A DNA stretch of 64,000 nt from an uncultured Gemmatimonadaceae bacterium (GCA_963790305.1 CAWBOC010000010.1:64001-128000); one strand, 5' to 3'. Counted from the stretch's first letter, positions 1,517 through 61,850 are shown. Notes: generated by a model not told the origin, from the letters alone. Translations and numbers: made by a program.

Positions 1517-1635
1517 GAAGATGTCGAGGTCGTCGACGTGATCGAGGGCTGGACCGTTGAGCCACTTCGCGCAACTCGGCATCTTAACGTGCCCCCCTCG
1601 ATCACTTCGACAACATTGACCACCTCGACTACCTC
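1517..1635. repeat. Inverted pair of 9-mer tandem repeats (GAGGTNGTC family)
   Basis: Left 1517-1548 GAAGATGTC GAGGTCGTC GACGTGATC GAGGG; right 1595-1635 CCCTC GATCACTTC GACAACATT GACCACCTC GACTACCTC. Confidence 0.8.
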
Positions 1636-2263
1636 AGCTCTGGAACTCCGCCGCGCCCTCGCGCATCTGCGGAAGACCGACGAGCGCATCGCGCGCGTCA
1701 TTGAGCAGGTTGGGCCCTGTCGCTTCACGCGTCGGGCCGAAGGCACGCACTTCGACGCCCTGCTGCGGGCCATCGTGTACCAGCAGCTCTCCGGGAAAGC
1801 GGCATCGACGATTCTCGGACGGGTGCTCGCCATCTACGGTGATCGGTACCCCACCGCGGCTGAGCTGCTCGCCACTCCCGAAGACCAGCTGCGCGCGGCG
1901 GGACTGTCACGGCAGAAGCTGAGCTACATCCGAGACCTCGCGCGGCACGTGCAGGAGGGGCTGCTTCCCGTCGACGACCTCAATGTGCTGGGGGACGCCG
2001 AGATCATCGAGGCGCTTACGGCGGTGAAGGGCATCGGTCGCTGGAGCGCGCAAATGTTCCTCATGTTCCGGCTCGGGCGGCCGGACGTGCTCCCTGAGCT
2101 CGACCTCGGCATTCGCAAGGGTCTGCAGCGCGCCTACAGGATGCGAAAGCTGCCCACCCCACAGCGAGTGAGGTCCATCGGCGCCCGATGGTCACCATAT
2201 TCCACGTATGCCTGTTGGTACCTCTGGCGGTCGCTCGACGGAGACGCGAACCTCGCCGACTAG
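1589..2263 (+). CDS. alkA: DNA-3-methyladenine glycosylase II (AlkA/HhH-GPD family)
   Basis: AIVYQQLSGKAA, GLSRQK, HhH motif LTAVKGIGRWSAQMFL, PDVLPELDLG, WSPYSTYACWYLW. Start uncertain (GTG 1589 or TTG 1616). Confidence 0.88.
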   Translation: MPPSITSTTLTTSTTSALELRRALAHLRKTDERIARVIEQVGPCRFTRRAEGTHFDALLRAIVYQQLSGKAASTILGRVLAIYGDRYPTAAELLATPEDQLRAAGLSRQKLSYIRDLARHVQEGLLPVDDLNVLGDAEIIEALTAVKGIGRWSAQMFLMFRLGRPDVLPELDLGIRKGLQRAYRMRKLPTPQRVRSIGARWSPYSTYACWYLWRSLDGDANLAD

Positions 2264-3407
2264 GTCGGCCACCGATCGCTTCGACCTGTTCGCGATCGCG
2301 GCCCCGGGACTGGAGCCACTCGTCCAGCGTGAGCTGAAAGCCCTGGGCATCGAGGGCCTCCACGTCGACGCGGGCGGCGTCTCCTTCACCGGCGGACGCG
2401 AGGCGATCTACCGCGCCAACTTGTACCTCCGAACGGCGACCCGCGTCATCGCGCGCGTCGCCGAGTTCGGTGTGAGGGGATTCCCCGAGCTCGTACGGCA
2501 CGCGAAGCGGCAACCATGGGAGCGCTACCTCGTCGCCAACCGTCCGATTCAGCTTCGCGTCACCTGCCGAAAGTCACGTCTCTACCACTCGGGTGCGGTC
2601 GCCGAGCGTGTAGCCGACGCGATATCCCAGCGGTTGGGGGTCGAGGGAGTCGAGGTGATCAAGGGTAGCGAGGACGAGGACGCCACGGGTCAGCTCGTCA
2701 TCGTCCGCGTGGCCCACGACCACTGCGTGCTGAGCGTAGACACGTCGGGCGAGCTGCTGCACCGTCGCGGCTATCGCGAGGCGACAGCGAAGGCACCGAT
2801 TCGTGAGACGCTGGCCGCCGCGCTCCTTCTGGCCGCGGAGTGGCGCGGGGACGCGCCGCTGCTCGACCCGTTCTGCGGATCGGGAACGGTCGCGATCGAG
2901 GGCGCCTTGCTCGCGCGTCACATTGCGCCCGGCCTCAACCGTCGCTTCGCCTTCATGGAGTGGCCCGACTTCGACAGCGCACTCTGGCGCCGCACTCACG
3001 ATGAAGCCGCGCGCGCGGTGGTCGCGCGCGCGCCATCACCCATTCAGGCGTCTGATCGAGACGCGGGCGCCATCGAGGCCGCGCGCGCGAACGCGGCACG
3101 CGCCGGCGTCGCCGACGACATCGTCTTTGAGAAGAGGGCGCTTTCGGCGATCGAGCCGCCGGTGGGGCTGGGCTGGGTCTGCACGAACCCTCCCTACGGC
3201 GTGCGCGTGAGCGAACGCGCCGAGCTGCGAAATCTCTACGCGCAATTCGGCAAGGTCATGCACGCGAAATGTCCAGGGTGGACGGTGGCGATGTATTCGG
3301 CCGACGCGCGTCTCGAGAAAGCGGCGAGACTCCCCTTGCGTCCGGTTCTGCGGACGGTGAACGGGGGAATTCCGGTGCGGGTCGTTAGGGGGATTGTCGG
3401 GCAGTAA
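2208..3407 (+). CDS. rlmL: THUMP-domain 23S rRNA m2G methyltransferase (RlmL/YpsC-like)
   Basis: ANLYLRTATRV, DTSGELLHRRGYR, APIRETLAA, DPFCGSGT, NPPYG. Start uncertain. Confidence 0.85.
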   Translation: MPVGTSGGRSTETRTSPTRSATDRFDLFAIAAPGLEPLVQRELKALGIEGLHVDAGGVSFTGGREAIYRANLYLRTATRVIARVAEFGVRGFPELVRHAKRQPWERYLVANRPIQLRVTCRKSRLYHSGAVAERVADAISQRLGVEGVEVIKGSEDEDATGQLVIVRVAHDHCVLSVDTSGELLHRRGYREATAKAPIRETLAAALLLAAEWRGDAPLLDPFCGSGTVAIEGALLARHIAPGLNRRFAFMEWPDFDSALWRRTHDEAARAVVARAPSPIQASDRDAGAIEAARANAARAGVADDIVFEKRALSAIEPPVGLGWVCTNPPYGVRVSERAELRNLYAQFGKVMHAKCPGWTVAMYSADARLEKAARLPLRPVLRTVNGGIPVRVVRGIVGQ

Positions 3408-3424
3408 CACTCGTGGCAACAGAA

Positions 3425-4030: not shown

Positions 4031-4033
4031 GGG

Positions 4034-7379: not shown

Positions 7380-13099
<5,720 letters not shown>

Positions 13100-13341: not shown

Positions 13342-14074
13342 ATGCGGACCTTGCGTACCTTCGATCTCCGAACGTTCGAGCTCCACGATATGCTCCGGTG
13401 TGGGCTCGATATTCGGCAGGCAGCGCGCAATGCCCCCTCCCTCGAAGAGGCGGCGACCTCGGTCATCCAGTATCTTTTCAACGCGTTTCGAGACCCGGCG
13501 TCAGGCGACCCGCAGCTGGCATTGGTGCGGTTTTACAAGACACTGCCCTATCGGGAGTTGGAGCCCGACCTGCGCCTGGTCGCGAAGACGGCCTTAGGCG
13601 AGGCGCCGCGCGACGAAGGGATGAAGTGTCTCACGCTGCTCGCGACCGCCGGTGTCGAGGAGGCGGTGGAATGACCGCCATCAATCCCGGGGTCACCGCG
13701 CCATTCCGCTCGCGAGCGTCCGTATGGTCCACCGAGCGCCGATGATCGCGCAGCTCATCGAGCAGTTGGGGATGGACGTCGAGCACCTCCTGCAGACGGA
13801 CACCACCCTGTTGCCCGACGCGGAGGGCCGCACCTACAACATTTTCTATGTCGAACGCGCTAAGGGAAGCCCCTACATCCCCGCGCAGGCCGACTTCGTC
13901 GTCCCGTTCGGGATTGAGTCGGTGGTGGGCTTCGGCGGGATCCTGCGGGGTGAGATGTTCGCCGTGGTGTTGTTCAGCCGAGTTCCGATCACCCCTGCCG
14001 CGGCGAACCGGTTTCGGAACATCGCGCTCGAGGTGAAGGCGGTGCTGCATTCGATAGACAGGGTGTTCGCTTAG
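13342..14074 (+). CDS. Uncharacterised protein, possibly a GAF-like sensor domain (one +1 frameshift near 13665)
   Basis: ORFs 13342-13674 and 13652-14074 join into one coherent protein of about 243 aa: LVRFYKT...CLTLLATAG.EEA|WNDRHQSRGHRAIPL...YIPAQADFVVPFGIESVVGFGG. Confidence 0.7.
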
Positions 14075-14162
14075 CGACGCATGCGGAATGCGGAATGCGG
14101 ATTGCGATGGCGCAGCAGCTCCAAGCCTTCAATCCGCAGTCCGCATTCCGCATTCGTCGCTA
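14072..14162. repeat. Inverted 7-mer repeat hairpin (ATGCGGA family) between convergent genes; possible bidirectional terminator
   Basis: 33-bp arms 14072-14104 and 14130-14162 with 2 mismatches; each arm begins with the TAG stop of the flanking gene. Confidence 0.88.
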
Positions 14163-18266: not shown

Positions 18267-18270
18267 CCCA

Positions 18271-18340
18271 GAGGTTGTCGAGGTTGTCGAGGTGATCAAG
18301 GTGAAGTCGCCCCGACTACTTCGACGACCTCGACGACCTG
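18271..18340. repeat. Inverted pair of 9-mer tandem repeats (GAGGTNGTC family)
   Basis: gaggttgtc gaggttgtc gaggtgatc ... gactacttc gacgacctc gacgacctg; starts 4 nt after the porin stop. Confidence 0.82.
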
Positions 18341-18383
18341 GAAAACAGAAACGCCGGCCCTTTCGGGCCGGCGTTCTGTTTTC
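18341..18383. terminator. Bidirectional intrinsic terminator
   Basis: gaaaacagaa-acgccggccc-tttc-gggccggcgt-tctgttttc between convergent genes. Confidence 0.85.
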
Positions 18384-18395
18384 GACTCGAGCAGC

Positions 18396-20498: not shown

Positions 20499-20530
20499 AG
20501 ACGTCAGACGTCAAGAGCTCGGAATTCAGA
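20499..20530 (+). repeat. Degenerate 7-mer repeat remnant (AGACGTC family)
   Basis: gagacgtc agacgtc aagagctc ggaattc aga, just after the tsdA stop. Confidence 0.45.
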
Positions 20531-20566: not shown

Positions 20567-21265
20567 ATGAGTGACACCATCCTGAACGTTCCTCGGCGCG
20601 AATTCCTCGCCGGGCTCGCCGCGGCCGGCGCCGGCGTGTTCGCCCCCGCCGCGGCCTTTGCCTCGACGCTCGATGACCGCCGCTTCCGCGTGGCGCCGGA
20701 CGAGAAGTGGCTCGAAAGCCTAACGGGCAAACACAAGCAAGTGTTCGACATGCCGAACCCGACCCACGGCCTCGGGATGATTCACATCCGCAATTACCTC
20801 AAGGCGTGGAAGGACAACTACAACCTCGAGCATCCGCAGGTCAACGCGGTCGGCACGCTCTACTTCATGACCATTCCCCTCGGCCTCACCGATCCAATGT
20901 GGGCGAAGTACAAGCTCGGCGAAGCGATCAAGGAGACGGACAAGAAGACCGACGCGTTCGCGGTGCGCAACATCTACCACAAGGCGGATCCGGGCGAAGC
21001 GACGCTCGCGATCAAGGGCATCGCCGACTGGCCCGCTGACACCTCGATCGACGGGCTGCAGAAGAAGGGGACGCTGTTCATCATGTGCAACAACGCGCTG
21101 AACTTCTGGGCGATGAACGTGGCGAAGGCGTCGAACCAGACGATGGAGGCCGTGCGCACCGAGTTCCTCGCGCACCTCGTGCCGGGCGTCGTCGTCGTGC
21201 CGGCAATGGTGATGGCGGTCGATCAGGCGCAGGCGAAGGGGTGCTCGTACATGCGGATGGGGTAA
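20567..21265 (+). CDS. Tat-exported DsrE/DsrF-like protein
   Basis: PRREFLAG Tat motif; AAGGAG RBS; HKQVFD; LQKKGTLFIMCNNAL; LVPGVVVVPAMV...AQAKGCSY. Confidence 0.65.
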   Translation: MSDTILNVPRREFLAGLAAAGAGVFAPAAAFASTLDDRRFRVAPDEKWLESLTGKHKQVFDMPNPTHGLGMIHIRNYLKAWKDNYNLEHPQVNAVGTLYFMTIPLGLTDPMWAKYKLGEAIKETDKKTDAFAVRNIYHKADPGEATLAIKGIADWPADTSIDGLQKKGTLFIMCNNALNFWAMNVAKASNQTMEAVRTEFLAHLVPGVVVVPAMVMAVDQAQAKGCSYMRMG

Positions 21266-21349
21266 GCAGAGGCGCTAGAGGCGCTAGAGGCGCTAGAGGG
21301 CGGTTGCCCCTCAGCGCCTCTAGCGCCTCTACGCCTCTAGCGCCTCAGC
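21266..21349. repeat. Inverted pair of 9-mer tandem repeats (AGAGGCGCT family)
   Basis: (agaggcgct)x3 agaggg ... ccctc (agcgcctct)x3-4; contains the pntB stop. Confidence 0.88.
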
Positions 21350-22751
21350 TTTTCGAAATCTCTCCTACCACCGCCGTCAGCATCTTCTTCGCGTCACCGA
21401 ACAGCATCGCCGTCTTCTCGTTGTAATACAGCTCGTTGTCGATGCCGGCGAAGCCCGGATTCATGCTCCGCTTGATCACGATCACGCTCTTCGCGTGGTC
21501 CACGTTCAGGATCGGCATCCCGTAGAGCGGGCTCGTGGTATCCGTGCGCGCGGCGGGATTGGTGACGTCGTTCGCACCGATCACCAGCGCGACATCCGTC
21601 CGCTCGAACTCGCGGTTGATGTCGTCCATCTCGTACAGCTGGTCGTACGGGACGTCCGCCTCGGCCAGCAGGACGTTCATGTGGCCCGGCATGCGGCCGG
21701 CCACCGGATGAATCGCGTACTTCACGTCGACGCCGCGCTTCTCGAGCAGGCGCGCCAGCTCCTTCACCGAGTGCTGCGCCTGCGCGACGGCCAGCCCGTA
21801 GCCGGGAACGAAGACGACGCTTCGCGCATAGCCGAGCATCACCGCCGCGTCCTCAGCTCGCACGGTGCGGACCGGACGATCCGCGCCATCTCCCGCCGCC
21901 GTCGTCGACGTCGCCCCAAACGCGCCGAAGAGCACGTTGGTGAGCGACCGGTTCATCGCGCGGCACATGATCTGGGTCAGGATGATTCCCGAGGCCCCGA
22001 CGAGCGCGCCGCTGATGATCAGCACGTTGTTGTGCAGCACGAATCCCGCGGCCGCGCCCGCCATCCCCGAGTAGGAGTTCAGGAGCGAGATGACGACGGG
22101 CATGTCCGCGCCCCCGATCGGAATCACCAGGAGGACGCCCAGCGCGAGCGACAGCACCGTGAGCGCGACGAACACCGCCGACATGTCGAAGTCGGCGACC
22201 AGCCACGCCGAGAGGCCGACGGCCACCGCGAGCAGCGCGAAGTTCAGCGTCTTCTGCGCGGGGAACGTGATCGCCCGTCCCGGCATGAGCTCCTGCAGCT
22301 TCGCGAACGCGATCATGCTTCCGGTGAAGGTGATCGCGCCGATGAGCATCGTGGCCATGATGCTGACCACGACGTCGGTCGCGCGCAGATCGGGGTGCAG
22401 GAGCAGCTGGTAGTACTCCGCCGCGGCGACGATCGCCGACGCCGCGCCGCCGAAGCCGTTCAGCAGCGCGACCATCTGTGGCATCGCCGTCATCTTCACC
22501 GAGTGCGCGAGCCAAATGCCGGCGACCGTGCCGATCACGAGGCCGAGCAGGATCCATCGGAACGCGATGATCTGCTGATCGAGCAGCGTCGCACCGATGG
22601 CCAGCAACATGCCGAGCGCGCCAATCGCGTTGCCGCGGCGCGCGGTCCGTGGGGACGACAGCAGCTTGAGCCCGACGATGAACAGGACCGCCGCGACGAG
22701 ATACGTCAGCGCGATGACGAGAGCGATACTGCGGGTGGGCTCGGCGTTCAC
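21345..22751 (-). CDS. pntB: NAD(P) transhydrogenase beta subunit
   Basis: MTAMPQMVALLNGFGG, PIGGADMPVVISLLNSYSG, PGYGLAVAQAQH, HPVAGRMPGHMNVLLAEA. Confidence 0.97.
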   Translation of the reverse strand: MNAEPTRSIALVIALTYLVAAVLFIVGLKLLSSPRTARRGNAIGALGMLLAIGATLLDQQIIAFRWILLGLVIGTVAGIWLAHSVKMTAMPQMVALLNGFGGAASAIVAAAEYYQLLLHPDLRATDVVVSIMATMLIGAITFTGSMIAFAKLQELMPGRAITFPAQKTLNFALLAVAVGLSAWLVADFDMSAVFVALTVLSLALGVLLVIPIGGADMPVVISLLNSYSGMAGAAAGFVLHNNVLIISGALVGASGIILTQIMCRAMNRSLTNVLFGAFGATSTTAAGDGADRPVRTVRAEDAAVMLGYARSVVFVPGYGLAVAQAQHSVKELARLLEKRGVDVKYAIHPVAGRMPGHMNVLLAEADVPYDQLYEMDDINREFERTDVALVIGANDVTNPAARTDTTSPLYGMPILNVDHAKSVIVIKRSMNPGFAGIDNELYYNEKTAMLFGDAKKMLTAVVGEISKS

Positions 22752-27045: not shown

Positions 27046-28621
27046 ATGCCCGCTCCTGACAGCCGCCGATTCTCCGCGTCGTCTCCACCGTTCGATCCCG
27101 AAGGCGCGCTGGACGCGCTCGACGAGCCTCTCTGTGTCGTGTCGACCGCGTGGCGATTGGTGTACATGAACCGAGCGTTCGCCGAGCTCGCGATTCAGGG
27201 GGGCGAAGTCGCCCTGTCGAAAGATCTTCGGGAGATCTTCACCGCGCTCAGCACACGCGATGACTGTGATCTCGCGACCCTCGACAGCGACGCGAAGCGC
27301 CAGTGGCGCATTCCCGCGTTTGGCAGGCCTCCGCGCGCACTCGATCTCAGGGCCACGCGCTTGCGCGACGACGCCGTTCTGCTGCACGTGCGCGACCTGG
27401 GCGACGCTGACGCGATCGAGCGCGCGCTCGCCGAACGGGATGAGGAGAACGCCGCGATGCGCGCAGGTCACTATCGCGCTCGCGCGCGAGGCCGACCTCG
27501 ACTCCCTGCTGCGCGTGATCTGCGAGCAGGCATCGGCGCAGTGCGACGCGAGTGGGGCGACCGTCGTGCGATTGGTCGGAGATCGTGGCGACATCGTGAG
27601 CGCGAGCGGATCGCTCGAGGCCATGGTTGGTACCTTGTTCTCGCTCGCGGGCTCACTCACGCAGCGTGCGATCGACGAGCGACGCCCCGTTCGTGCCGAC
27701 GATTATCGCAGCGAGCATCCCCGGTTTCGCCAGGTCGCCGAGGAGTTCGAGATCGGTCCGGCGCTCTTCGCGCCACTCCTCGCGCATGACCACATGCTCG
27801 GGGCGATGACCGTCGCGCGTCGTCGCGGCGCCGCAGCCTTCTCGACGCGCGACGAGCGCCGCATCTCCGCGATCGCCGATTACGCGGCGCTGGCCTTGTG
27901 GAAGGCGCACCTCACCGACGAGGCGCGCGTGGCGAACAAGGTGAAGGGGGAATTCATCGCCACCATGTCGCACGAGCTGCGGACGCCGCTCACCGCCCTG
28001 CTCGGCTATGAGGAGCTGTTCGCCGAGCATATCCTCGGCCCGCTCACCGATCAGCAGGAAGTCGCCGTCGATCGAATGCGCACGAGCACGCAGCACCTAC
28101 AGGCCATCATCGATGAGGTGCTGACCTTCTCGCGGCTCGAGGCCGGCGAGGAGCGTGTGCACCGTCGTCAGGTGCCCGTTGGCGACATCCTCAATGGCAC
28201 CATGGCGGTCCTCGCGCCACTCGCGCACGCGAAGCGCATCGCGTTGTCGATGGACGCCGCCGAGGAGCCGCAGGTCATCCGCACCGACCCGGACATGATC
28301 CGGCGCATCCTGGTCAACCTGGGTGGCAATGCGGTGAAGTTCACCGAGCAGGGGTCGGTGCGTGTGAACGTGAGGCTCGAGGGTGAGTGGCTCGTGTTCG
28401 AGGTCTCCGACACGGGCATCGGCATCGCGACCGCGGATATCACACGTCTCTTTCAACCCTTCACGCAGCTGGATACCGGCTTCACGCGCCGCTTCGGAGG
28501 GACGGGGCTGGGGCTCTTCGTCTCCCGTCGTCTCGCGGAGCTGCTCGGGGGAGATATCGGCGTGGCGAGCGTCCCGGGTACCGGCAGCACGTTTACGCTG
28601 CGGGTACCCCTGGAGGAGTAG
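27046..28621 (+). CDS. PAS-GAF-HisKA-HATPase sensor kinase (frameshift near 27465)
   Basis: PAS (WRLVYMNRAF) in ORF 26968; [30 protein letters not shown] in ORF 27260. Confidence 0.85.
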
Positions 28622-28623
28622 CG

Positions 28624-28676
28624 CTGCGGGCTGCGAACTGCGAAGTCTCCCCGCCGTGTTCGCAGCTCGCAGTAGC
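28624..28676. repeat. Inverted pair of 7-mer repeats (CTGCGAR family)
   Basis: ctgcggg ctgcgaa ctgcgaa ... ttcgcag ctcgcag; starts 2 nt after the kinase stop. Confidence 0.75.
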
Positions 28677-28712
28677 TTCCGACCCTCTTTCCCCGCGCGT
28701 TAGATTACCCGC

Positions 28713-37926: not shown

Positions 37927-37934
37927 GGGCTGAA

Positions 37935-38057
37935 AGGGGCAACTTCTGCAGACGTCAGGAATCAGAGGTCAGGTCTCAGCGGGCAGACACGGCGTTTGCC
38001 GCTATCTGACCACTGACACCTGACGTCTGATTCCTGACGTCTGCAGAAGTTGCCCCT
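37935..38057. repeat. 53-bp inverted repeat built partly from TCAG-core 7-mers; MITE/REP-like
   Basis: Arms 37935-37987 and 38005-38057; outer 32 bp perfect, 4 mismatches in total, 17-nt loop. Confidence 0.88.
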
Positions 38058-40095: not shown

Positions 40096-40218
40096 GCGCG
40101 AGGTGGACGAGCCACACGCTCCGTCTGCAACCGGGGGTTGCTTGCCTCGCCCCCGGGACTGCTTCCTCGTAGATTGGGGAGCAGGAAATCCGCGCGATTC
40201 CACAGCTGAGCCACCGAC

Positions 40219-44152: not shown

Positions 44153-44487
44153 GAGCGCTGGTAGCCGCCGCGCTCCCCGCGGCGCTGCTCGCCTGCGGCG
44201 ATGCGCCCTCCGGCCCATCGAACACCGGTGTTCCGGTGGCGCGCGTCATCATCGTTCCCGATAGCGTCTCGCTTCCGCGCTCTCAGACGATGCGTATCGA
44301 GGCGCTCCTCGTGGACGCGGCGGGGAATGAGCTGGGCGGTCGTACGATTCTCTGGACCAGCTCCGACACGATGCGTGTGAAGGTGGCGTCGGGTGGAACG
44401 GTCACCGCCGCCGACGTCGGCTGGTCACTCGTGCGGGCGTCGAGCGAGGGGAAGGTGGATAGCGTCAAGGTGATAGTGACCCAATAA
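44146..44487 (+). CDS. Small lipoprotein with Ig-like (Big_2) domain
   Basis: AALLAC lipobox; VARVIIVP, WTSSDT, GTVTA, ASSEGK. Start codon unclear. Confidence 0.6.
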   Translation: MLRALVAAALPAALLACGDAPSGPSNTGVPVARVIIVPDSVSLPRSQTMRIEALLVDAAGNELGGRTILWTSSDTMRVKVASGGTVTAADVGWSLVRASSEGKVDSVKVIVTQ

Positions 44488-44551
44488 GGCGCTGGAAAAG
44501 CGCTGGGGCTAGCGCCAATCCAGCGCTGTCCCAGCGCTATTCCAGCGCTCC
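44488..44551. repeat. Inverted pair of about 11-mer repeats (AGCGCTGG core)
   Basis: ggcgctggaaa agcgctggggc ... ccagcgctgtc ccagcgctatt ccagcgctcc; includes the MFS stop and last codons. Confidence 0.65.
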
Positions 44552-45853
44552 TTGTTTCTTCAGCGCTTCTCCCGCGCCTGTGTCTTCCGGCACCTTCACC
44601 GCCAGGAGCGCTGTCGACGCCACGAGCGCGGCGGAAGCGAAAAACGGGATGTACGAGCCTGCCTGTCCCAGGTGCGCATGGCCCAGGTCCCAGACCGTTC
44701 CGGCGAAAAGCGCGTACAACACGCGCGTGATGTTGCCCACCGTCTGCTGCAGCCCCATGTACAGCCCACGCTCGTGATCGCCGACCACCTGCGAGAGCAT
44801 CGCCGTCACGCACGGGAAGAGCAGCGTCGCGCCGAGGGGCAGCAGGGCGGTCGCGATCGCCAGCGTCACGAGCGAGCTCGTGAAGGGCATCACCACGAAG
44901 CCTAACGCGAGCGAGATGATTCCCAGGCGTGTCGTGCGCGCCTCCCCGACGCGATCGATCACCTTCCCGAGCAGGCCAATACGGAACACGACGTTGAGCA
45001 CGCCCAGGTAGGCGAAGAACGGGCCGATCGTCTTCTCCGTGATCCCGTGGCGCTCCATCAGAAAGAACGGCATCACCCCCGACAGCGTGAGCCCGTAGAA
45101 CGCGCCAATCGCGATGGCGTATACCCAGATGAATCGCTTCGCGAAGTCGGGGTTCGGGTGCGTGAGGCTCGCCGCGCCCTGCGCGCCGAGCGTCCACCGC
45201 GTCACCAGCGTGACGGGCCAGACGGGAGCGATGCGCCACACCCCTTTGACCGTGGCCCACTGCTCCCGGCGCGCCTTCGCCTTTGCCGCCGCGCCGTGCG
45301 ATTCGCCGAGGAAACGCGACGCGAAGGCGATGTTCAGGAGACAGACCGCGGCCGCGATCAGTCCCGGCGCGTGGCGTCCCCATGTCGATGCCGCGGAGCC
45401 GATGAGCGGGCCGATCATGACGCCGACGTTGGTCGCGGCGGACAACCATCCCAGCCCCTTCGCGCGATTCTTCGGCTCGACGACGTCCGACACGTATGCC
45501 TGGATGACGCCAACCGTTCCGCCGCCAGCGCCCTGAATAATGCGCGAAACGAACAGCAGCCACAGCGAGTCCGCGAAGGCGAACACGACGTAGGCGACGG
45601 CGGATGCGGAAAGGCCGATGATGAGCGCCGGCTTGCGTCCATAGCGATCGGAGACGCGTCCCCAAAGCGGGGCACTGATGAGCTGGGCGATGAGGAACGA
45701 CGATCCCAGCCATGCCATCACGAAGCCGGTCGCGCCGAGGTCCTTCGCGTAGAAGGGCAGCAGCGGCAACAGCATCAGTACGCCCACCATGTCCATGAAC
45801 GCCGTCAACATCAGGACGGCGAGGCCGGCGGGAATGGCGGACGGACGCTTCAA
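44537..45853 (-). CDS. MFS transporter, DHA1/TetA-like
   Basis: WGRVSDRYGRKP motif A, SRIIQGAGGG, GVMIGP, 12-TM pattern. Confidence 0.9.
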   Translation of the reverse strand: MKRPSAIPAGLAVLMLTAFMDMVGVLMLLPLLPFYAKDLGATGFVMAWLGSSFLIAQLISAPLWGRVSDRYGRKPALIIGLSASAVAYVVFAFADSLWLLFVSRIIQGAGGGTVGVIQAYVSDVVEPKNRAKGLGWLSAATNVGVMIGPLIGSAASTWGRHAPGLIAAAVCLLNIAFASRFLGESHGAAAKAKARREQWATVKGVWRIAPVWPVTLVTRWTLGAQGAASLTHPNPDFAKRFIWVYAIAIGAFYGLTLSGVMPFFLMERHGITEKTIGPFFAYLGVLNVVFRIGLLGKVIDRVGEARTTRLGIISLALGFVVMPFTSSLVTLAIATALLPLGATLLFPCVTAMLSQVVGDHERGLYMGLQQTVGNITRVLYALFAGTVWDLGHAHLGQAGSYIPFFASAALVASTALLAVKVPEDTGAGEALKKQGALE

Positions 45854-45859
45854 AAGGGC

Positions 45860-45978
45860 AAGGCGCTAAAAGGCGCAAAGGCGCGAAAGGCGCGAAAGGC
45901 GCTGACGGCGTAACGTGGCTCACGCATCAACATCATGGATGAATTGCCTCTAGCGCCTCTAGCGCCTCAAGCGCCTCA
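45860..45978. repeat. Inverted pair of 9-mer tandem repeats (ARAGGCGCK family)
   Basis: (aaaggcgcg/t)x5 ... gcctct agcgcctct agcgcctca agcgcctca; supplies the permease TGA. Confidence 0.82.
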
Positions 45979-46863
45979 GTCTTCCGTCTTGCCCAGCGCC
46001 GCCGGCGGGGTCGACCGCGCCACGAAACCACCCACCGCGACAATGGTGAGAACATAGGGGATCATCTGTACGAACTGGCTTGGGATCCCCTGCATGCCCT
46101 GAAGCTGAATCTGCAACGTCTCCGCGGCGGCGAAGAGCAGGCATGCGAGGCCGGCGCGCACCGGCTCCCATCGCCCGAAGATGATCGCCGCCAGCGCAAT
46201 GAACCCGCGTCCAGCGGTCATCGAATCGGTGAACTGGTGCTGGTCGAGCGCCAGATACACGCCGCCGAGCCCCGCGAGAATTCCCGAGAGGGCGACCGCG
46301 AGATAGCGGACCCGTCGGACGGGAACGCCTAACGTCTCGGCCGCGGCGGGATGCTCGCCGACCGCGCGCACGCGCAGGCCGAACGGCGTGTAGTGCACCA
46401 GCCACGCGACGGCGGGAATCGCCATCAGGCCGAGCCACACCAGCGGGTTCCGCAACAGCGCTCCCGTCAAGCTCACCGCATCCCCGGTGATGCCGAAGCC
46501 TGGCACGCGTGGCGAGTTCGACGAGCTGTCGAACGCCATGAGCAGGAAGAACCGCGTGAGGCCGACGGCGAGCAGGTTGATCGCGATGCCCGTGACGATC
46601 TGGTCGGCGCGATACCGGATCGAGGCGACCGCGTGGATCAATCCGAACAGCAACCCCCCGCCGACGCCACACAGCACGCCGATCCACGGGCTGCCGCTGT
46701 AGAAGCTGCCGAGAGTGGCGGCGAACGCGCCCGTCAACATGAATCCCTCGAGCGTGAGGCTCACCACGCCCGCACGCTCGGCCACAACCCCCCCTGAGGC
46801 CGCGAACAGGTAGGGGATCGCGATGCGGATCGTCTGGGCAATGAAGGCGGCGATCTCGCTCAT
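45976..46863 (-). CDS. Nucleoside ABC transporter permease 2
   Basis: AERAGVVSLTLEG, GLRVRAVGEHP, GRGFIALAA, IPYVLT. Confidence 0.92.
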   Translation of the reverse strand: MSEIAAFIAQTIRIAIPYLFAASGGVVAERAGVVSLTLEGFMLTGAFAATLGSFYSGSPWIGVLCGVGGGLLFGLIHAVASIRYRADQIVTGIAINLLAVGLTRFFLLMAFDSSSNSPRVPGFGITGDAVSLTGALLRNPLVWLGLMAIPAVAWLVHYTPFGLRVRAVGEHPAAAETLGVPVRRVRYLAVALSGILAGLGGVYLALDQHQFTDSMTAGRGFIALAAIIFGRWEPVRAGLACLLFAAAETLQIQLQGMQGIPSQFVQMIPYVLTIVAVGGFVARSTPPAALGKTED

Positions 46864-47927: not shown

Positions 47928-49513
47928 GCGGCGGGTCTCGTCGTGTCGGTCGCGCCCGTCATCAGGGGACCGAGCCGTTCCTCCGTTGCTTCGCGCCGCG
48001 GGAGCGTGGCCACGATGCGGCCGCCGTACATGACGGCCACACGATCGGCGAGCGCGAGAATCTCGGAGAGCTCCGCCGAAACGAGAAGAATGGCCTTGCC
48101 TGCCTCACGAGCGGCTCGAATCTGGGCGTGGATGAACTCGATCGCGCCGACATCCACTCCGCGGGTAGGCTGCGATGCGAGAAGAACCGCGTAGGCGCCG
48201 CCCATTTCGCGCGCAATGACGATCTTCTGCTGATTGCCGCCCGACAGTGAGCGGGCCGGGAGCACCCCGTCGGGTGGGCGGATGTCGAAACGCCGGATCT
48301 CGTCCTGGGCGTTGGCGCCGATGCGCGCGTCGTCGAGGGTCCATGCGTTCCGCACACCGCGCGCGTACTTGTGCTGATCCCCCAGGATGAGATTGTCGGC
48401 CACGGAGTAGTCGAGCACGAGCCCCCGGCGATGCCGGTCTTCGGGGATGTGGGCGAGGCCGGACTCCGTGCGCTCGCGGACCGAAGCGTTCGTGACATCC
48501 CGCTCCCCGAGCTTGATCGTTCCCTCGCCGACGGCGCGCAGGCCCGCGATCGCTTCGATGAGCTCGGTCTGTCCGTTTCCCTCGACGCCCGCGATGCCGA
48601 GGATTTCCCCCGGGGCGACGGTGAGCGAAACGCCGTCGACGGCGCGGAGGCCGCGGTTCATCACGACCAGGTTGCTCACGAGCAAGGAAGATTGCGGATT
48701 GCGCGCGTGCCCTTGGGGCAGGGCGGACTCAGGTGACGACAGCTCATCATCCGCAATCCGCAATCGCACGTCGCGTCCAACCATCGCGCGCGCGATGCTG
48801 TCCGGTGTCGCCTCGCTCGTCTGCATCCGCGCCACCGTCTCACCGTGACGCATGACGGTGATGCGGTCGGAGATGTCCATGACCTCGTCGAGCTTGTGCG
48901 TGATGAGCACGATCGTCGCCCCATCGTCGCGCAACCGGCGCAGAACGCCCCACAGCTCCTTCACCTCGAGCGGCGACAGGACGGCCGTCGGCTCGTCGAG
49001 GATGAGAATGCGCGCCCCACGGAACAGCGTCTTGAGAATCTCGACGCGCTGCGCTTCCCCCACTGAGAGCTCGCCGACGAGACGCTCCGGTTCGACGCGC
49101 AGTCCATACTGCTCGCCGATCCGCCGCACGTCGCTGAGCGCCCGTGCGACGTCGAGCATCGCACCGCGCACCGGCTCACGGCCCAGGACCACGTTCTCGG
49201 CGACCGTGAGCGTTCGGACGAGCATGAAATGCTGGTGGACCATTCCGACGCCGGCCTTGATGGCGTCGGCGGTGGACCAGCCAGTGACGTCGCGCAGCTC
49301 ACCGTTCGGCGCCGCGATCTCGATCGTGCCGGCGTCGGGGGCGTACAGGCCCGCGAGCAGACGCATGAGCGTCGACTTCCCCGCGCCGTTCTCGCCGACG
49401 AGTGCGTGGATCTCCCGGCTGCCGACTTCCAGGCTGGCACCGCGATTGGCGTGAACGGGACCGAAGGACTTGTGGATGCCGCTCAAGCGAACGGCGAGCG
49501 CGGGTCCCGTCAT
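47924..49513 (-). CDS. Nucleoside ABC transporter ATPase (two ABC domains)
   Basis: GENGAGKST, MVHQHFML, LDEPT, GVEGNGQ, LSGGNQQK, QPTRGVD. Confidence 0.93.
   Translation of the reverse strand: MTGPALAVRLSGIHKSFGPVHANRGASLEVGSREIHALVGENGAGKSTLMRLLAGLYAPDAGTIEIAAPNGELRDVTGWSTADAIKAGVGMVHQHFMLVRTLTVAENVVLGREPVRGAMLDVARALSDVRRIGEQYGLRVEPERLVGELSVGEAQRVEILKTLFRGARILILDEPTAVLSPLEVKELWGVLRRLRDDGATIVLITHKLDEVMDISDRITVMRHGETVARMQTSEATPDSIARAMVGRDVRLRIADDELSSPESALPQGHARNPQSSLLVSNLVVMNRGLRAVDGVSLTVAPGEILGIAGVEGNGQTELIEAIAGLRAVGEGTIKLGERDVTNASVRERTESGLAHIPEDRHRRGLVLDYSVADNLILGDQHKYARGVRNAWTLDDARIGANAQDEIRRFDIRPPDGVLPARSLSGGNQQKIVIAREMGGAYAVLLASQPTRGVDVGAIEFIHAQIRAAREAGKAILLVSAELSEILALADRVAVMYGGRIVATLPRREATEERLGPLMTGATDTTRPAA
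48690..48767. repeat. Intragenic inverted 7-mer pair (ATTGCGG family)
   Basis: gattgcggattgcg ... atccgcaatccgcaatc, in the inter-domain linker of the ATPase. Confidence 0.7.
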
Positions 49514-54954: not shown

Positions 54955-57007
54955 ACGGCGAAGACGTCGTAGCAGCCTCCTCCAGCAGCGACCTCAGCCT
55001 ACCCGGATCGGAAGTCGGCTCCGAGCAGAGATAGTGACGGCACACGTACCCCGTGGCGCTTCCGTCTCTGGCGACGCGGTCCTCGAGGAGCGCCACGGTG
55101 GCTCCTTCACCGGGGGCACCGCCGGCCAGGACGAGCGCGGGCAGATACTGCCGAGCCACCTCCGCCGTGAGCGCGCGAAAGTCCTCACGTTGCGGGTCGC
55201 CAACGATCGCGACTTCAGTGGCACCGTTGATCGCCAGATCGGCTGCACCTAACAAGTACCCGAACGCGGCCCCGTGCTGCGCCAGTGGAGCGGCCAGGGT
55301 CTCGAGCATCCACGTCGCTCGGCGCTGCATGTCGGAGTCACGAAAGAGCTCGGCAAGGCGCAAGAGAAGCTCGACTGCGAGAGAGGTCCCGGCGGGGGTC
55401 GCGTTGTCGGTCACCTCGCGAGGGCGGGTGATCAACCGCTCGTGGTCGTGCGCCGTATCGAAGAACATGTTGGCGCTTTCGTCCCAGAAGGACGCGACCA
55501 TCGCATCGCCCAGTAGGCGAGCCCGCGTGAGCCACGAAGCGTCGAACGTGAGCTCGTAGAGCGAGAGAAACGCCAGCGCGACGGCCGCATGGTCCTCGAG
55601 AAAACCAGCGATGCGCGCTCGCCCATCTTTCCACGAGCGAGAAACCTTGTTCTCCTGAACCAGCTCGCGCGCGAGAAACTCGCCGGAGTGTAGTGCCGCG
55701 GCACGCCAGTCTTCGCGGCCACCCACACGAGCACCGTCGGCCAGGGCACGAAGCATGAGGCCGTTCCACGATGCGAGCACTTTTTCATCGCGTCCCGGCC
55801 ACACGCGCGCCGCCCGGCGCTCGTACAGCTTCGCCCGTGCTCGGCGAACCGCGTCCTCCAGGTGGGAGCGCTCAATGCTCTCCCGTGCAGCGACCGCGGA
55901 GGGCTCGTTGGGCACGTGAAGGATGTTGTGTCCCTCGAAGTTTCCACCCGGGCTCACACCCCAATACTTCGAGACGAGTGCGGCGTCTTCCCCCACGACT
56001 TCCTCGAGCTCGGCAGCACTCCATACATAGAACTTGCCTTCCTCACCCTCGCTGTCGGCGTCGAGCGAGGAGTAGAAGCCGCCCTCGGGTGAGCGCATTT
56101 CCCGAAGGGCCCAATCGATGGTGTCCTCCGTCACGCGTCGGGTCTCGTCGTCGCCGGTGGCCTGCCAAAGATGAACGCCGAGGCGCGCCAGGAGCGCGTT
56201 GTCGTACAGCATCTTCTCGAAGTGCGGCACCAGCCACACCGCGTCGACTGCATAACGATGAAAGCCCCCGCCCACCTGATCGTATATCCCGCCGCGTGCC
56301 ATCCGTCGGAACGAGTGAGTGGCGATCTCGAGGGCGTGCGACGTCCCGGTGCGACGCCAATAGCGCAGCGAGAAGTCGAGCGCCATGGCCTGCGGGAACT
56401 TGGGTGCCCCTTCGAATCCCCCCTGGCGTGCGTCGTACCGCTGCGCGATCGAGCGCCAGGCGCGGTCGAGCAGGGCGGGGCTGAGCCCACCGGTACTGCG
56501 GGGAGCGGTCGTGGCAGCAACGTAGATGCTCTTGAGCTGCTCCCCGGAGCGCATGACCTCCTCGCGCCGGGTGCGATACGCATCCGCCACCCCGGCGAGG
56601 ACGCGCCGGAACGACGGCATCCCCATGCGATCGTCGGGCGGGTAGTACGTGCCGCCGAAGAATGGCACGCCCTCGGGCGTGAGAAACATCGTCATCGGCC
56701 AGCCGCCATGTCCGGTCATTGCCTGGACGGCGCTCATGTAAATCCCGTCGAGATCGGGACGCTCTTCGCGGTCGACCTTGATGTTGACGAAGTGATCGTT
56801 CATGACGCGCGCCGTCGCCTCATCCTCGAACGATTCGCGCTCCATTACGTGGCACCAGTGACAGGCCGCGTAGCCAATGCTGAGAAGAATCGGCTTGTCC
56901 TCGCGCTGTGCGCGCTCCAGCGCCTCGCTGCCCCACGGGTACCAGTCGACCGGGTTGTGGGCGTGCTGAAGGAGATAGGGACTCGTCTCGTGAGCTAGTC
57001 GGTTCAT
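54923..57007 (-). CDS. yyaL: YyaL/SPATA20-like thioredoxin-domain (DUF255) protein
   Basis: [46 protein letters not shown]. Confidence 0.93.
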
Positions 57008-57102
57008 GCGGCGCGGAATGCGGAATGCGGATTGCGGATGGGGACTGCTTGCCTCATGGTGTCATCACGCATGCCGCATTCCGCAATCCGCAATCCGCAA
57101 TC
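57008..57102. repeat. Inverted pair of 7-mer tandem repeats (ATGCGGA family) filling a divergent intergenic region
   Basis: gcggaatgcggaatgcggattgcggatg ... ccgcattccgcaatccgcaatccgcaatc. Confidence 0.85.
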
Positions 57103-57107
57103 AGACC

Positions 57108-58670: not shown

Positions 58671-59708
58671 ATGTCCAAGGACTCGCCCCTCTCACGTCGC
58701 GCCCTGCTCAAAGCGGGCGCACTCGGCACAGTGGCAGCCGGCGGTGCCGCAGCCCTCCGCACCCTTCACGGCGTGGCCGAGGCCCAGCAGCGCGTCGACA
58801 CGACCGGCGGGCGCGCGGTCGTGCACGGATCGCACGACGCCATGATCGCGGTCGGCGAGCTGACTCCCGGCCAGTTCGACCCCACCGCCTTCCTCACCCA
58901 CTTCGATTACGGGACCGTCTCCCGCCTGCCTAACGGCCAGACGTTGCGCGAGTATACGATCGTCGCCGAAGATCGGGAGATCGAGGTCGCCCCGGGGGTG
59001 TTCTACCCGGCGTGGACCTACAACGGCCAGGTTCCCGGTCCGACCATTCGGTGCACCGAGGGTGACCGCGTACGCATCCACTTTACGAATAACGGCAAGC
59101 ACATCCACTCGATCCACTTTCACGGAATTCATCCCGCGAACATGGATGGCGCATTCGAGATGATTCCGCCGGGTGAGCGGTACGTCTACGAGTTCGACGC
59201 CGAGCCGTTCGGGCTGCACCTGTATCACTGCCACACCGTCCCGATCAAGCGCCACATCCACAAGGGATTGTACGGCGCATTCATCATCGATCCGAAAGAG
59301 GGCCGCCCAGCGGCGAACGAGCTCGTGATGGTGATGAACGGGTTCGACACGAACTTCGACAACGAGAACGAAGTTTACGCCGTGAACACGGTGGCCTTTC
59401 ACTATCAGAAGCATCCGATTCCGATCAAGCTCGGCGAGCTGACACGGGTGTATCTCATCAACATTACCGAGTTCGATCTGCTCAACTCGTTGCACATTCA
59501 CGGCAACATGTTCCGGTTGTACCGCACCGGCACGAGCCTGACGAACTCCGAATTGACCGACATCGTGACGCTCGGGCAGGGTGAGCGCTCGGTGCTGGAG
59601 TTCACGTACAAGTTCCCGGGCCAGTTCATGTTTCACGCGCATCAGAGCGAGTTCGCCGAGCTCGGGTGGAGCGGGATCTTCCGCGTGGAGGAGCCCGCCC
59701 GTGTCTAG
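58671..59708 (+). CDS. Tat-exported two-domain multicopper oxidase
   Basis: SRRALLK Tat motif; HSIHFHG, YHCH...RHIHKGL, NSLHIHG, FHAHQ. Confidence 0.9.
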   Translation: MSKDSPLSRRALLKAGALGTVAAGGAAALRTLHGVAEAQQRVDTTGGRAVVHGSHDAMIAVGELTPGQFDPTAFLTHFDYGTVSRLPNGQTLREYTIVAEDREIEVAPGVFYPAWTYNGQVPGPTIRCTEGDRVRIHFTNNGKHIHSIHFHGIHPANMDGAFEMIPPGERYVYEFDAEPFGLHLYHCHTVPIKRHIHKGLYGAFIIDPKEGRPAANELVMVMNGFDTNFDNENEVYAVNTVAFHYQKHPIPIKLGELTRVYLINITEFDLLNSLHIHGNMFRLYRTGTSLTNSELTDIVTLGQGERSVLEFTYKFPGQFMFHAHQSEFAELGWSGIFRVEEPARV

Positions 59709-60906
59709 CGCCTCTAGCGCGTCTAGCGCCTCTAGCGCCTCTAGCACTCGTACGAACCGCCTCCTCCTCGGGCTCGGGCCGCTCGCGCTGCTCGCGCTGC
59801 TCATCTTCGCATTCCTCAAGGTCGGGCCGCTGGGCGTCTTCCGCGCCGCGTTTCCCCCGGTCGAGGAGCTGACGATCGAGCGCGTGACGCTGCCGAAGGC
59901 GGGAGAGATGGTCGTGCACGTCGTCAACGGCGGTCCCGAAGCGGTCACGGTGGCCCAGGTGCTCGTCGATGACGCGTCGTGGCTCCATTACATCGATGGT
60001 GAGCGCACCATTAGCCGGCTCGAGCGTCGCGCGATTCGCATCCCGTACCCGTGGGTCGAGGGCGAGCCGCACGTCGTGCGTCTCATCACCAGTACCGGTC
60101 TCACCTTCGATACGACGATCGAGGTCGCGACGACAACCCCGACTGCCAATGCGCGATACCTCACCACGTTTGCGCTCCTTGGCGTGTACGTCGGTGTCAT
60201 CCCGGTGTTTCTGGGACTCCTCTGGTTTCCCTTTCTGCGGACGGCGAGCCGCCGCTGGCTCGACTTCTTCCTGTCACTCACCGTTGGCCTGCTGATCTTT
60301 CTCGGGGTCGACGCGTTCGCTGAGGCGCTCGAGACTTCCGCGCGCGTCGCGGGCGCCTTTCAGGGCCTCGGCGTCGTCTTGTTAGGCGTGCTCGGAACGC
60401 CCCTCGCGCTCGCCGCGATCGGCCACCGCAATCGCGGGACAGGGAAGGGAACTTCCGCGTTTCACGTCTCGCTGTTGATCGCCATCGGCATTGGCTTGCA
60501 CAACCTCGGTGAGGGTCTCGCGATCGGGGCCGCCTACTCCACCGGCGCGATCGCGCTCGGCACCTTCCTGATCATTGGCTTCCTGCTACACAACACGACG
60601 GAAGGGCTCGGGATTCTCGCGCCCATCGCGACCGAGCGGCCGAGTATCGCGCGGCTCGCGATGTTGGGAGCGATCGCGGGAGTGCCGACCGTCCTCGGTG
60701 CCTGGATCGGCGCCTTTACGTACTCGCCGCTGTGGACGACGCTGTTCTTCGCGGTCGGCGCGGGTGCCATCGTGCAGGTCGTGTGGGAGCTGATCAAGCT
60801 GTTCTCCCGTCGTTCCGAAGGCGGCCTCACCGCGCCGTTGAATGTCGCTGGAGTGATGGCGGGGCTGCTGATCATGTACGTCACCGGTCTCCTGGTTCCC
60901 GCATGA
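59701..60906 (+). CDS. ZIP family metal transporter with N-terminal extracytoplasmic domain
   Basis: GIGLHNLGEGLAIG and LHNTTEG; GTG 59701 overlaps the oxidase stop. Confidence 0.88.
   Translation: MSSASSASSASSASSTRTNRLLLGLGPLALLALLIFAFLKVGPLGVFRAAFPPVEELTIERVTLPKAGEMVVHVVNGGPEAVTVAQVLVDDASWLHYIDGERTISRLERRAIRIPYPWVEGEPHVVRLITSTGLTFDTTIEVATTTPTANARYLTTFALLGVYVGVIPVFLGLLWFPFLRTASRRWLDFFLSLTVGLLIFLGVDAFAEALETSARVAGAFQGLGVVLLGVLGTPLALAAIGHRNRGTGKGTSAFHVSLLIAIGIGLHNLGEGLAIGAAYSTGAIALGTFLIIGFLLHNTTEGLGILAPIATERPSIARLAMLGAIAGVPTVLGAWIGAFTYSPLWTTLFFAVGAGAIVQVVWELIKLFSRRSEGGLTAPLNVAGVMAGLLIMYVTGLLVPA
59704..59745 (+). repeat. (TCTAGCGCC)n 9-mer array, single arm, translated as SSASSASSASSASS
   Basis: Same unit as the right arms at 21308-21347 and 45946-45978. 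Confidence 0.85.
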
Positions 60907-61718
60907 GAATCCGTTCGCTCGCGGCCGTGGCGGCATGCGCGCTCGCATCGGTGGTGGACGCGCAGGTGGCAGGGCAGAGCACCGGCCCCCGGCCGCCGGT
61001 CCGCGACAACAGCTTCCTCGTCGAGGAGGCGTACAATCAAGAGGCGCGCGTCGTTCAGCACGTCAGTGTGCTTTCAGTGACGCGCGAGAGTGACGGCTGG
61101 GAGTATGGGTTCACGCAGGAGTGGCCCGCGGGCAGTCAGCGCCACCAGCTGAGCGTCACCGTGCCGATCGTGAATGCGGCGGATGCGACCGGCGTTGGCG
61201 ATGTCGCCCTCAACTACCGGTACCAGCTCGCCTTCGACGACGCGAGCGGCAATGCCGTGGCGCCGCGCGTGAGTCTCGTGCTTCCCACCGGGGACGCCGA
61301 GCAGGGGCGCGGGACGTCGTCGTTAGGTCTTCAGGTGAATCTGCCGGTGAGCTGGGGATGGCACCGTACCTTTGTCACGCACTGGAACGTCGGCGGGGCG
61401 TGGACGCCATCGGCCCGCGCACCGTCGGGGGGAAGAAGTGCCACGCGCGATGTCACGGCGGCCGCCAGCGCGATCTGGCTGGCGAGGCGCGCGGTCAACC
61501 TGATGCTCGAGTTCGCCTGGGCGCGTGAAGAGTTCGCCGTGGGAGCCGATGCACGCGTTGCGGAAGAATCGGCCTGGATCTCGCCGGGCGTGCGTGCCGC
61601 GATCGATTTCCCCAGCGGTCTCCAGATTGTTCCCGGTCTCGCGTTTCCCATCGGCATCGGTCCGAGCGATGGCGAAAAGCGCGTGCTGGTGTACCTCAGC
61701 TTCGAGCACGGCTTCTAG
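60903..61718 (+). CDS. Outer-membrane beta-barrel 'transporter'-like protein
   Basis: Signal peptide; DNSFLVEEAYNQE, GVGDVALNYRYQ, LVLPTGD, terminal YLSFEHGF. Confidence 0.7.
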   Translation: MRIRSLAAVAACALASVVDAQVAGQSTGPRPPVRDNSFLVEEAYNQEARVVQHVSVLSVTRESDGWEYGFTQEWPAGSQRHQLSVTVPIVNAADATGVGDVALNYRYQLAFDDASGNAVAPRVSLVLPTGDAEQGRGTSSLGLQVNLPVSWGWHRTFVTHWNVGGAWTPSARAPSGGRSATRDVTAAASAIWLARRAVNLMLEFAWAREEFAVGADARVAEESAWISPGVRAAIDFPSGLQIVPGLAFPIGIGPSDGEKRVLVYLSFEHGF

Positions 61719-61850
61719 GGGTCAGGAGTCAGGGGTCAGGGATCAGGGGATGTCGGGGGAAGCGGTGCCAGGAGAGCGACGTGTCGTTCCCTCCTGCGAC
61801 CCAACCCCTGCCCCCCCTGATCCCTGACCCCTGACTCCTGACCCCTAGAA
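61713..61850. repeat. Perfect 37-bp inverted repeat made of TCAGGRR 7-mers, including both convergent stop codons
   Basis: 61713-61749 ttctaggggtcaggagtcaggggtcagggatcagggg is the exact reverse complement of 61814-61850. Confidence 0.92.

Follow-up and report, generated by a model that had tools for sequence, protein, structure and literature searches.

The window considered here is a 64,000-nt stretch (G000:C10:64001-128000) of the genome of an uncultured Gemmatimonadaceae bacterium (GCA_963790305.1, hereafter G000), whose assembly comprises 4.31 Mb in 13 contigs with 66% G+C and is 94% complete. An earlier note, made from the sequence of the window, had described in it about 14 dispersed elements built of 3-5 short tandem units, a short loop and the same units in reverse complement. 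All 14 named sites carry tandem units of 7-11 nt, mostly as inverted arms, and both the positions and the architecture were confirmed at every site by Tandem Repeats Finder, the raw sequence and an inverted-repeat scan, including the single arms or remnants at 8581, 20499 and 59704. Eleven of the elements, folded as RNA, form single long hairpins (-37 to -116 kcal/mol, z -3.8 to -14.1), and none of the 200 shuffles per element matched the native fold. No open reading frame (ORF) lies inside any of the 14, which are therefore treated here as the gene-less counterparts of cassettes that hold a small gene between arms of the same kind.

Such cassettes are present elsewhere in G000, which encodes six members of PF05635 (four-helix bundle, the 23S ribosomal RNA (rRNA) intervening-sequence protein family) and four of PF13366 (GxxExxY, PD-(D/E)xK-like). 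Inverted tandem-unit arms enclose each of the six PF05635 genes, and every gene has a unit family of its own (GAGTGGG, AGGAGTC, a TCAG-type unit, GAGGTCGTC, GAGGCGCT and GAATGCG). Two PF13366 genes are enclosed by paired tandem-unit arms (CACAGAGGC and CCGCAGATGG), the third is truncated by a contig start and has a CGCAGAGGA array on its intact side, and the inverted repeat at the fourth is non-tandem. The filled versions of the elements that the earlier note had proposed to look for were thus found, with 6/6 PF05635 and 3/4 PF13366 genes beside tandem-unit arms. A search for unpaired arrays with a distant inverted partner returned ten pairs, and three of the four examined enclose small PF05635 or PF13366 ORFs. 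Besides an ATGCGGA array pair 299 nt apart (C7:189542-189910), whose enclosed sequence has no PF05635 or PF13366 match, these are the only gene families located between matching arms in G000. A cassette measures about 0.5 kb and consists of a 5' arm of 3-5 G-rich units (7 or 8-10 nt), the small gene and the reverse-complement arm; the arms are 24-41 nt long and the inner distances 408-535 nt. The cassettes abut neighbouring genes tightly, and the G+C content at third codon positions (GC3) of their ORFs (0.59-0.70) is below the threshold of 0.76 for host genes. The closest solved structure to a G000 PF05635 protein is that of Xanthomonas XCC0516 (2GSC, E 4e-19), the pentameric S23p cited in a paper on the Coxiella intervening sequence (IVS) (PMC4990558).

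Genome-wide, we detected 1800 short tandem arrays (period 5-12, at least 2.5 copies), of which 425 have an inverted partner within 200 nt, compared with 24 that have a direct partner, the control; this excess of inverted pairs is far beyond chance. Merging left 423 non-overlapping elements (214 of period 7, 170 of period 9 and 39 of other periods). The strict detector recovers only four of the 14 window elements, so that the true number is higher than 423. Arrays have a median of 3.8 units and the strict elements a median stem of 25 nt, a median loop of 36 nt and 87 canonical units; together the elements amount to 41,136 bp, or 0.95% of the genome. Within a family, the same order of variant units and the same arm ends occur at dozens of loci (for example, AGGGGTC AGGAGTC AGGGGTC AGGGATC AGGGG), and inner modules such as a double-hairpin core or the GAGGGCTCCG hairpin recur, although many cores are nonetheless unique. 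The elements are families with fixed arm sequences and not independent products of slippage. They also have a polarity, with G exceeding C in the 5' arm of 394 of the 423 elements, the reverse in 18 and equality in 11.

In the gene-less form, the arms are kept around a short, mostly unique core, and by their arms most families correspond to one resident cassette. We assigned an element to a cassette when it had an exact 11-mer in common with the cassette's arms, and by this rule 338 of the 423 match one of the nine resident cassettes, while 25 match the arms of congeners' cassettes only. In the window, the ATGCGGA elements correspond to the cassette at C10:203260-203840, the AGAGGCGCT elements to C9:787676-788209, the GAGGTNGTC elements to C7:227892-228422, the AGGGGTC elements to C5:70534-71055 and the element at 37926 to C9:163279-163780. 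The two elements at 37935 and 61713, previously placed together under a TCAG core, match different cassettes. The description of the units as unrelated is also too strong, as several fall into series whose members are one to three bases apart (AACGAGG / AATGAGG / AATGCGG / ATTGCGG; AGAGGCGCT / AAAGGCGCT / GAAGGCGCT).

We extended the survey to nine related genomes of the genus (G000 and eight congeners, G001-G008), which are kin, so that their counts are not independent trials. PF05635 is present in all nine, with 55 matches, 49 of them outside G000. Of these 49 we examined 47 and set aside two, of which one fell under the family cut-off and the other lay at a contig edge. Inverted tandem-unit arms are present at 45 of the 47, and contig ends cut off the remaining two. 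For PF13366, 26 of 30 matches outside G000 were examined and 21 were testable, of which 16 have arms above the 99th percentile of the null. In a tree of 32 proteins the arm family requires 13 changes, the possible minimum, compared with an average of 24.0 for shuffled labels; none of 200 shuffles was as low, and the 9-mer cassettes all belong to one clade. The arrangement is also found outside the genus. A cross-phylum scan with an alignment of 14 PF05635 proteins against species genomes identified 80 loci in many phyla, 76 with testable flanks, and 53 of these 76 have inverted arms scoring above 13, the 99th percentile of 400 random windows (median 9, maximum 19). In nearly all of the armed loci the period is 7 and the inner distance roughly 380-640 nt, and the arms upstream of the gene appear G-rich in the 53 cassettes (by eye, not counted). 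One of the cross-phylum four-helix-bundle cassettes (L102) has the arm units AGGGTTT / CCCTAAA, which are also the heptamer of plant-type telomere repeats. Together with the rule that the 5' arm is G-rich, these arms raise the question of whether arms are made by templated repeat addition.

Across the nine genomes, arm families are abundant only where the matching cassette is present. GGGCCAR arms have 107-218 hits in the cassette holders G001, G002, G005, G006 and G007 and 0, 0, 0 and 3 hits in the other four genomes, and AGGGTSCTC arms have 99-285 hits in the holders G003, G004, G005 and G008 and 0-18 in the other five. AATGCGG arms (151 hits in G000, 54 in G006, 37 in G001 and 0-3 in the remaining genomes) and AACGAGG arms (192 in G005, 141 in G008, 61 in G004, 22 in G003 and 3-5 elsewhere) are complementary in their abundance. 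Six genomes share one orthologous cassette locus, which has GAATGCG arms in both G000 and G006, GAACGAGG arms in G005, mixed-form arms in G001 and GATTGCGG arms in G002 and G004. The CTGCGAA/CTGCGRR family, which is represented in the window, has cassettes only in the congeners G005 and G008.

The elements themselves stay in place between species while their units change. We compared seven orthologous sites, and each is occupied in every congener recovered. The ATGCGGA heptamer hairpin at 14072..14162 (33-nt arms, 94% complementary; -60.6 kcal/mol, z -8.9) fills the gap between two convergent genes with stops at 14074 and 14160. Of the five congeners compared at 14075-14159, G004, G005 and G008 carry AACGAGG in place of ATGCGGA, whereas G002 and G007 carry AATGAGG-like units. 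Immediately 3' of the stop at 18266 lies the GAGGTTGTC 9-mer hairpin (18267..18346; -48.9 kcal/mol, z -8.4), and this site (18267-18395) shows five unit families among G000, G001, G002, G005 and G006. Beside it is a separate, canonical-looking bidirectional terminator (18344-18386; -29.2 kcal/mol, z -6.4), a GC hairpin preceded by an A-run and followed by a T-run, and the GC hairpin with its T-run is kept in all five genomes despite the change of element family. The AGAGGCGCT 9-mer hairpin at 21264..21351 (-71.7 kcal/mol, z -10.2), with the stops of convergent genes at 21265 and 21345, has related 9-mers in three genomes and GGGCCAG or GGGATCGAA arms in four, around a common double-hairpin core (21266-21344); in all, three related and three unrelated unit families occur there. 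The AGGGGTC/AGGAGTC heptamer hairpin at 61713..61850 (46-nt arms, 91% complementary; -115.7 kcal/mol, z -13.6) spans from stop to stop of convergent genes and provides a TAG at each end; five families occur at this site (61719-61844) among G000 and six congeners, and the entire spacer is the stop-to-stop hairpin.

Three further orthologous sites were compared. The single array of 4.7 copies of TCTAGCGCC at 59704..59745, whose first unit contains the stop codon of a multicopper-oxidase gene, corresponds to a full hairpin in G004, G008 and G005 (59709-59760), and the single arm in G000 looks like the remnant of a deletion. The ATGCGGA hairpin at 57006..57104 (-56.7 kcal/mol, z -5.6) is flanked by divergent genes. 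At this site (57008-57110), the two ATTGCGG-type arrays of G004, G007 and G008 enclose an ORF of about 400 nt that is crcB-like (fluoride channel), G005 has a crcB-like remnant, and G000, G001 and G003 have only one hairpin; to judge from these sequences, the arrays mark a site of loss or gain of the crcB-like gene. The ATTGCGG hairpin at 48688..48768 (minus strand, z -4.0) is in frame and lies within the linker that joins the two ATPase domains of an ABC transporter gene (two ABC_tran stretches), with the frame open throughout. In each of the eight congeners the linker of this gene likewise carries an in-frame hairpin (124-142 nt), with unit families of their own. Sites are conserved while the unit family changes between species, even in a coding linker.

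The other window elements are as follows. A degenerate inverted 9-mer element of the GAGGTCGTC family (1509..1634, arms 1509-1548 and 1595-1634, 75% complementary; -57.2 kcal/mol, z -5.9) lies between a UDG-family gene and an HhH-GPD gene. A single array of 4.9 copies of CTGCGRG at 8581..8614 has no inverted partner, and the remnant at 20499..20513 consists of two AGACGTC units (2.1 copies). The CTGCGRR heptamer hairpin at 28618..28682 (-36.7 kcal/mol, z -5.1) follows the stop of a histidine-kinase gene (28621). For the TCAG-type heptamer hairpin at 37926..38066 (62-nt arms, 87% complementary; -109.2 kcal/mol, z -14.1), we observed that a minus-strand ORF of 733 aa (38002..40203) crosses the right arm and stops in the loop, about 21 of its C-terminal codons being element-derived. 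The hairpin of 11-nt AGCGCTGG-type units at 44486..44552 (-51.1 kcal/mol, z -8.1) lies upstream of the stop of a minus-strand MFS transporter gene (44537-44539), and a plus-strand ORF without a Pfam match terminates at 44487. Two minus-strand genes flank the AAGGCGC / GCCTCTAGC 9-mer inverted arrays with a 43-nt loop at 45852..45980 (-55.2 kcal/mol, z -3.8). The window also contains a 276-nt tandem repeat of 7.9 copies (10382-12571) within a 908-aa protein with seven HAMP domains.

The elements are also present in independent assemblies. Soil metagenome contigs cover the window only as short pieces of 90-99% likeness, and we used them only for two bridging contigs and two 1-nt indels. One contig bridging the hairpin at 14072-14162 carries a 7-letter gap, and a second has a shorter hairpin, likewise with an ATGCGGA unit. 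Samples from a congener (G008, 112 kb) and from another genus (G014, 126 kb) contain two and four inverted-tandem elements, respectively. At one locus in G008 (L001:8992, contig C1), TTCCTCG arrays and their reverse complement surround about 130 nt that resemble a transfer RNA gene by eye.

Placement was assessed with a crude GC3-based gene caller (3800 genes, 86% coding; first host-gene threshold GC3 0.76). Elements are present in 127 of 697 convergent intergenic regions (1.05 elements per kb of spacer), 164 of 2400 tandem regions (0.46-0.59 per kb) and 34 of 690 divergent regions (0.22 per kb). A further 97 lie inside called genes, of which 57 are within 150 nt of an uncertain start, 18 within 60 nt of the 3' end and 22 internal. 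The left arm starts at a median of 4 nt past the upstream stop codon, and TAG or TGA is present within the units of several families. Like terminators, these are stable GC-rich hairpins shortly downstream of a stop codon; in the family listings, no T-run is evident after the 3' arm for most arms (by eye, not counted), and one family has A-runs there.

According to the main rival explanation, the elements are host hairpins that serve as terminators or 3'-end stabilisers and evolve in place, through slippage, through the repair of palindromes that are imperfect and now and then through gene conversion from one locus to another; the small genes would be passengers that chance to lie in such hairpins or to insert into them. 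The proximity to stop codons and the enrichment between convergent genes agree with it, as do the occupation of the seven sites in every congener recovered, the one- to three-base series formed by the units at one site, the variation in unit number between near-identical metagenome contigs and the apparent immobility of gene-bearing cassettes within the genus. It does not account for a family with up to 151 arm hits of the same unit order and ends in one genome and none in four congeners, nor for families that follow the presence of a cassette. Termination at 18267-18346 does not depend on the element, because the adjacent canonical terminator is kept in all genomes while the element family changes. 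Some copies are located between divergent genes or within a coding linker, and most arms lack a T-run to the eye. We regard evolution in place as unlikely.

A second rival explanation is that the elements are classical non-autonomous elements, either MITEs (miniature inverted-repeat transposable elements) or repetitive extragenic palindromic (REP) sequences and their paired form (REPINs), moved by a transposase or a REP-associated tyrosine transposase (RAYT) encoded elsewhere. Inverted terminal arms of 20-35 nt, dispersal, high copy number and lineage-specific abundance would all be expected of such elements. The absence of a mobiliser from the window, as stated in the earlier note, holds for the 33 ORFs scanned, and in the 94% complete genome we found no match to RAYT (PF01797), a family that a control search detected in 6 of 14 genomes, no reverse transcriptase gene (PF00078) and no DDE_Tnp_1 gene (PF01609). 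PF07282 gave one match, which falls below threshold, and neither paired elements within 2.5 kb nor matching arms accompany the three rve loci of G000. On these grounds we rejected a REP/REPIN-RAYT identity (no PF01797), retro-mobility (no PF00078) and a DDE or TnpB mobiliser (no PF01609, rve loci without arms, PF07282 below threshold). Within a family the cores are for the most part unique, the listed family flanks show no target duplication, and matching arms enclose, the 299-nt pair excepted, no genes other than those of PF05635 and PF13366. Movement of this kind appears very improbable.

A third rival explanation gives the elements a regulatory role as G-quadruplexes or i-motifs, which has been proposed for the GGGAATC repeats of Xanthomonas. 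Consistent with this are the polarity of the arms and the G3-G4 tracts of some families (e.g., AGGGGTC), and a similar heptamer was measured to form a quadruplex in that work (PMC4692102). However, runs of three G are missing from the 9-mer families and from AATGCGG, the family with the most members, and perfectly complementary arms predict competing hairpins of -37 to -116 kcal/mol. A quadruplex function appears very improbable.

The closest known counterpart of the cassettes is the IVS of Coxiella burnetii, which measures 428 nt and has a 28-bp terminal stem, an S23p ORF and three tandem heptamers whose number varies between strains; it is cleaved by RNase III (PMC4990558). Both are about 0.4-0.5 kb long and combine a PF05635 (S23p) ORF with a heptamer-bearing terminal inverted-repeat stem. 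Stems of about 20-30 bp, as in IVSs, are found here too (genome-wide median 25 nt; cassette arms 24-41 nt). They differ in that the cassettes of G000, like the hundreds of copies without a gene, are situated between protein genes and not in rRNA, in that units of 8-10 nt and a second gene family (PF13366) also occur, and in that no RNase III gene was found. The two 23S rRNA copies of G000, when aligned and scanned, have no tandem-armed insert in either copy, and an IVS within its own 23S rRNA is rejected. We observed that these two copies (G000:C9:615825-618869 and G000:C6:138470-141485) differ in 148 of 3053 aligned columns, including a 17-nt indel. This is a large difference within a single genome and may reflect real operon divergence or a mixed bin. 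The RNase III domains PF14622 and PF00636 were not found in G000; among 40 relatives from the same order, PF14622 was detected in a single one, where it sits on a contig of 1.5 kb, and that relative's protein gives no tblastn match in G000 better than E = 2. That an RNase III-free lineage carries so many long perfect stems may be no coincidence.

Inverted heptamer arrays between genes are likewise on record. According to Rehm et al. (2015), the Xanthomonas GGGAATC repeats form about 185 intergenic heptamer arrays per genome, with 70-75 convergent inverted pairs, mostly sharing their gene context between two species with length differences, and are read as quadruplex-forming (PMC4692102). The text of that paper contains neither "S23" nor "four helix", and thus no link to cassette genes, and reports no turnover of unit families (PMC4692102). 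Tandem heptamers in intergenic regions, convergent inverted pairs and gene context conserved between species are common to both systems; the difference is one unit family there compared with nine or more here, where only some families have the G3 tract required for the quadruplex reading of that paper (PMC4692102). The elements had been called a candidate undescribed system in the earlier note, which is only partly right given these heptamers and the IVS stems (PMC4692102, PMC4990558). The TAACTGA repeats of Beggiatoaceae, by contrast, are not the same phenomenon, as they are described as direct repeats upstream of start codons with one inverted case only (PMC4679880).

Several points weigh against reading the elements as gene-less copies kept like the arms of a cassette. 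Sixty of the 423 elements match no cassette, resident or congeneric, and the association of cassettes with arm counts could stem from common ancestry, given the kinship of the nine genomes. The fit is imperfect in G004, which has GATTGCGG arms at the six-genome cassette locus and AACGAGG at the sampled sites, and in G001, which has 37 AATGCGG hits and other arms at that locus. Cassettes of the same clade are syntenic between species, so that vertical descent is sufficient for the match between protein tree and arm family, and we rejected this co-phylogeny as proof of specific recognition. None of the seven orthologous sites is empty, and no insertion event or target duplication was seen at them. 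Related unit series could also arise in place by mutation and homogenisation without movement, and the RNase III part of the analogy with rRNA IVSs does not carry over. The earlier note had held that elements fixed at orthologous sites, with neither polymorphism nor an associated gene, would speak against a generating system; half of this was found, in that the sites are fixed, while their sequences vary and associated genes exist.

Taking both sides together, we consider that the window elements are probably gene-less counterparts of IVS-type cassettes, with arms kept like those of a master by a copying process. A shared generating process, as the earlier note had supposed, is supported because arm counts track cassettes, unit families turn over at fixed sites and 394 of the 423 elements carry their G-rich arm on the 5' side. 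The copying could be gene conversion or re-seeding from the cassette and would keep the arms dispersed over the genome similar to those of the master. Each cassette protein probably acts on the arm repeats of its own cassette, and we infer that it does so in trans. Copies may persist behind stop codons because a long hairpin is harmless there, or useful as a 3'-end structure of the transcript. A stronger version is possible but tentative: a new kind of mobile system would copy the arms and not the gene, with the PF05635 and GxxExxY proteins as the components that act in trans. Each protein would recognise its own tandem arms and bring about their copying to hairpin sites, or the conversion of such sites, always with the G-rich strand 5', so that hundreds of intergenic hairpins and one coding linker would follow a single master cassette. 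The cassette would stay put, in keeping with the apparent immobility of the gene-bearing cassettes in this genus, and neither a transposase nor a RAYT nor a reverse transcriptase would take part.

Other repeat systems share single features with this one. REP sequences, bacterial interspersed mosaic elements (BIMEs) and REPINs are short palindromes present in hundreds of copies behind genes, each family tied to a cognate gene. High-copy palindromes behind genes and the pairing of family and gene are found here as well, whereas no RAYT was found and the arms are tandem repeats; we know of no DNA-cleaving or DNA-joining activity in the cognate families PF05635 and PF13366. Rickettsia palindromic elements place a palindromic repeat in frame in coding sequence, as at 48688-48768, but here this is one verified case (22 of the 423 elements lie inside called ORFs, unverified) and most elements are intergenic. 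The foldback (FB) elements of Drosophila, which are eukaryotic and of kilobase scale, have long inverted arms of short tandem repeats around variable middles, a likeness in arm build only that implies no relation. Among open-access papers, without their supplements, we found none that links PF05635 or PF13366 to dispersed inverted tandem repeats. To these records the genome adds the one-to-one matching of families and cassettes, the pattern of presence and absence across the genus, the turnover of families at fixed sites including a coding linker, the association of 8-10 nt units with certain protein clades, the rule of arm polarity and the apparent lack of RNase III.

PF05635 and PF13366 are very large families of small proteins for which, to our knowledge, no function has been established, and we are likewise aware of no explanation for the excess of 7-nt repeats in bacterial genomes. 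The genome of G000 ties the two together with unusual clarity, with nine cassettes and nine matching families of gene-less hairpins that make up about 1% of its DNA. The hairpins shape most convergent gene ends, can be in frame in proteins and mark sites of gene loss, as for the crcB-like gene, and they therefore affect annotation, assembly and the reading of 3' untranslated regions in soil bacteria. If the link is causal, it would represent a mode of DNA propagation without a recognised recombinase and would explain the origin of rRNA intervening sequences.

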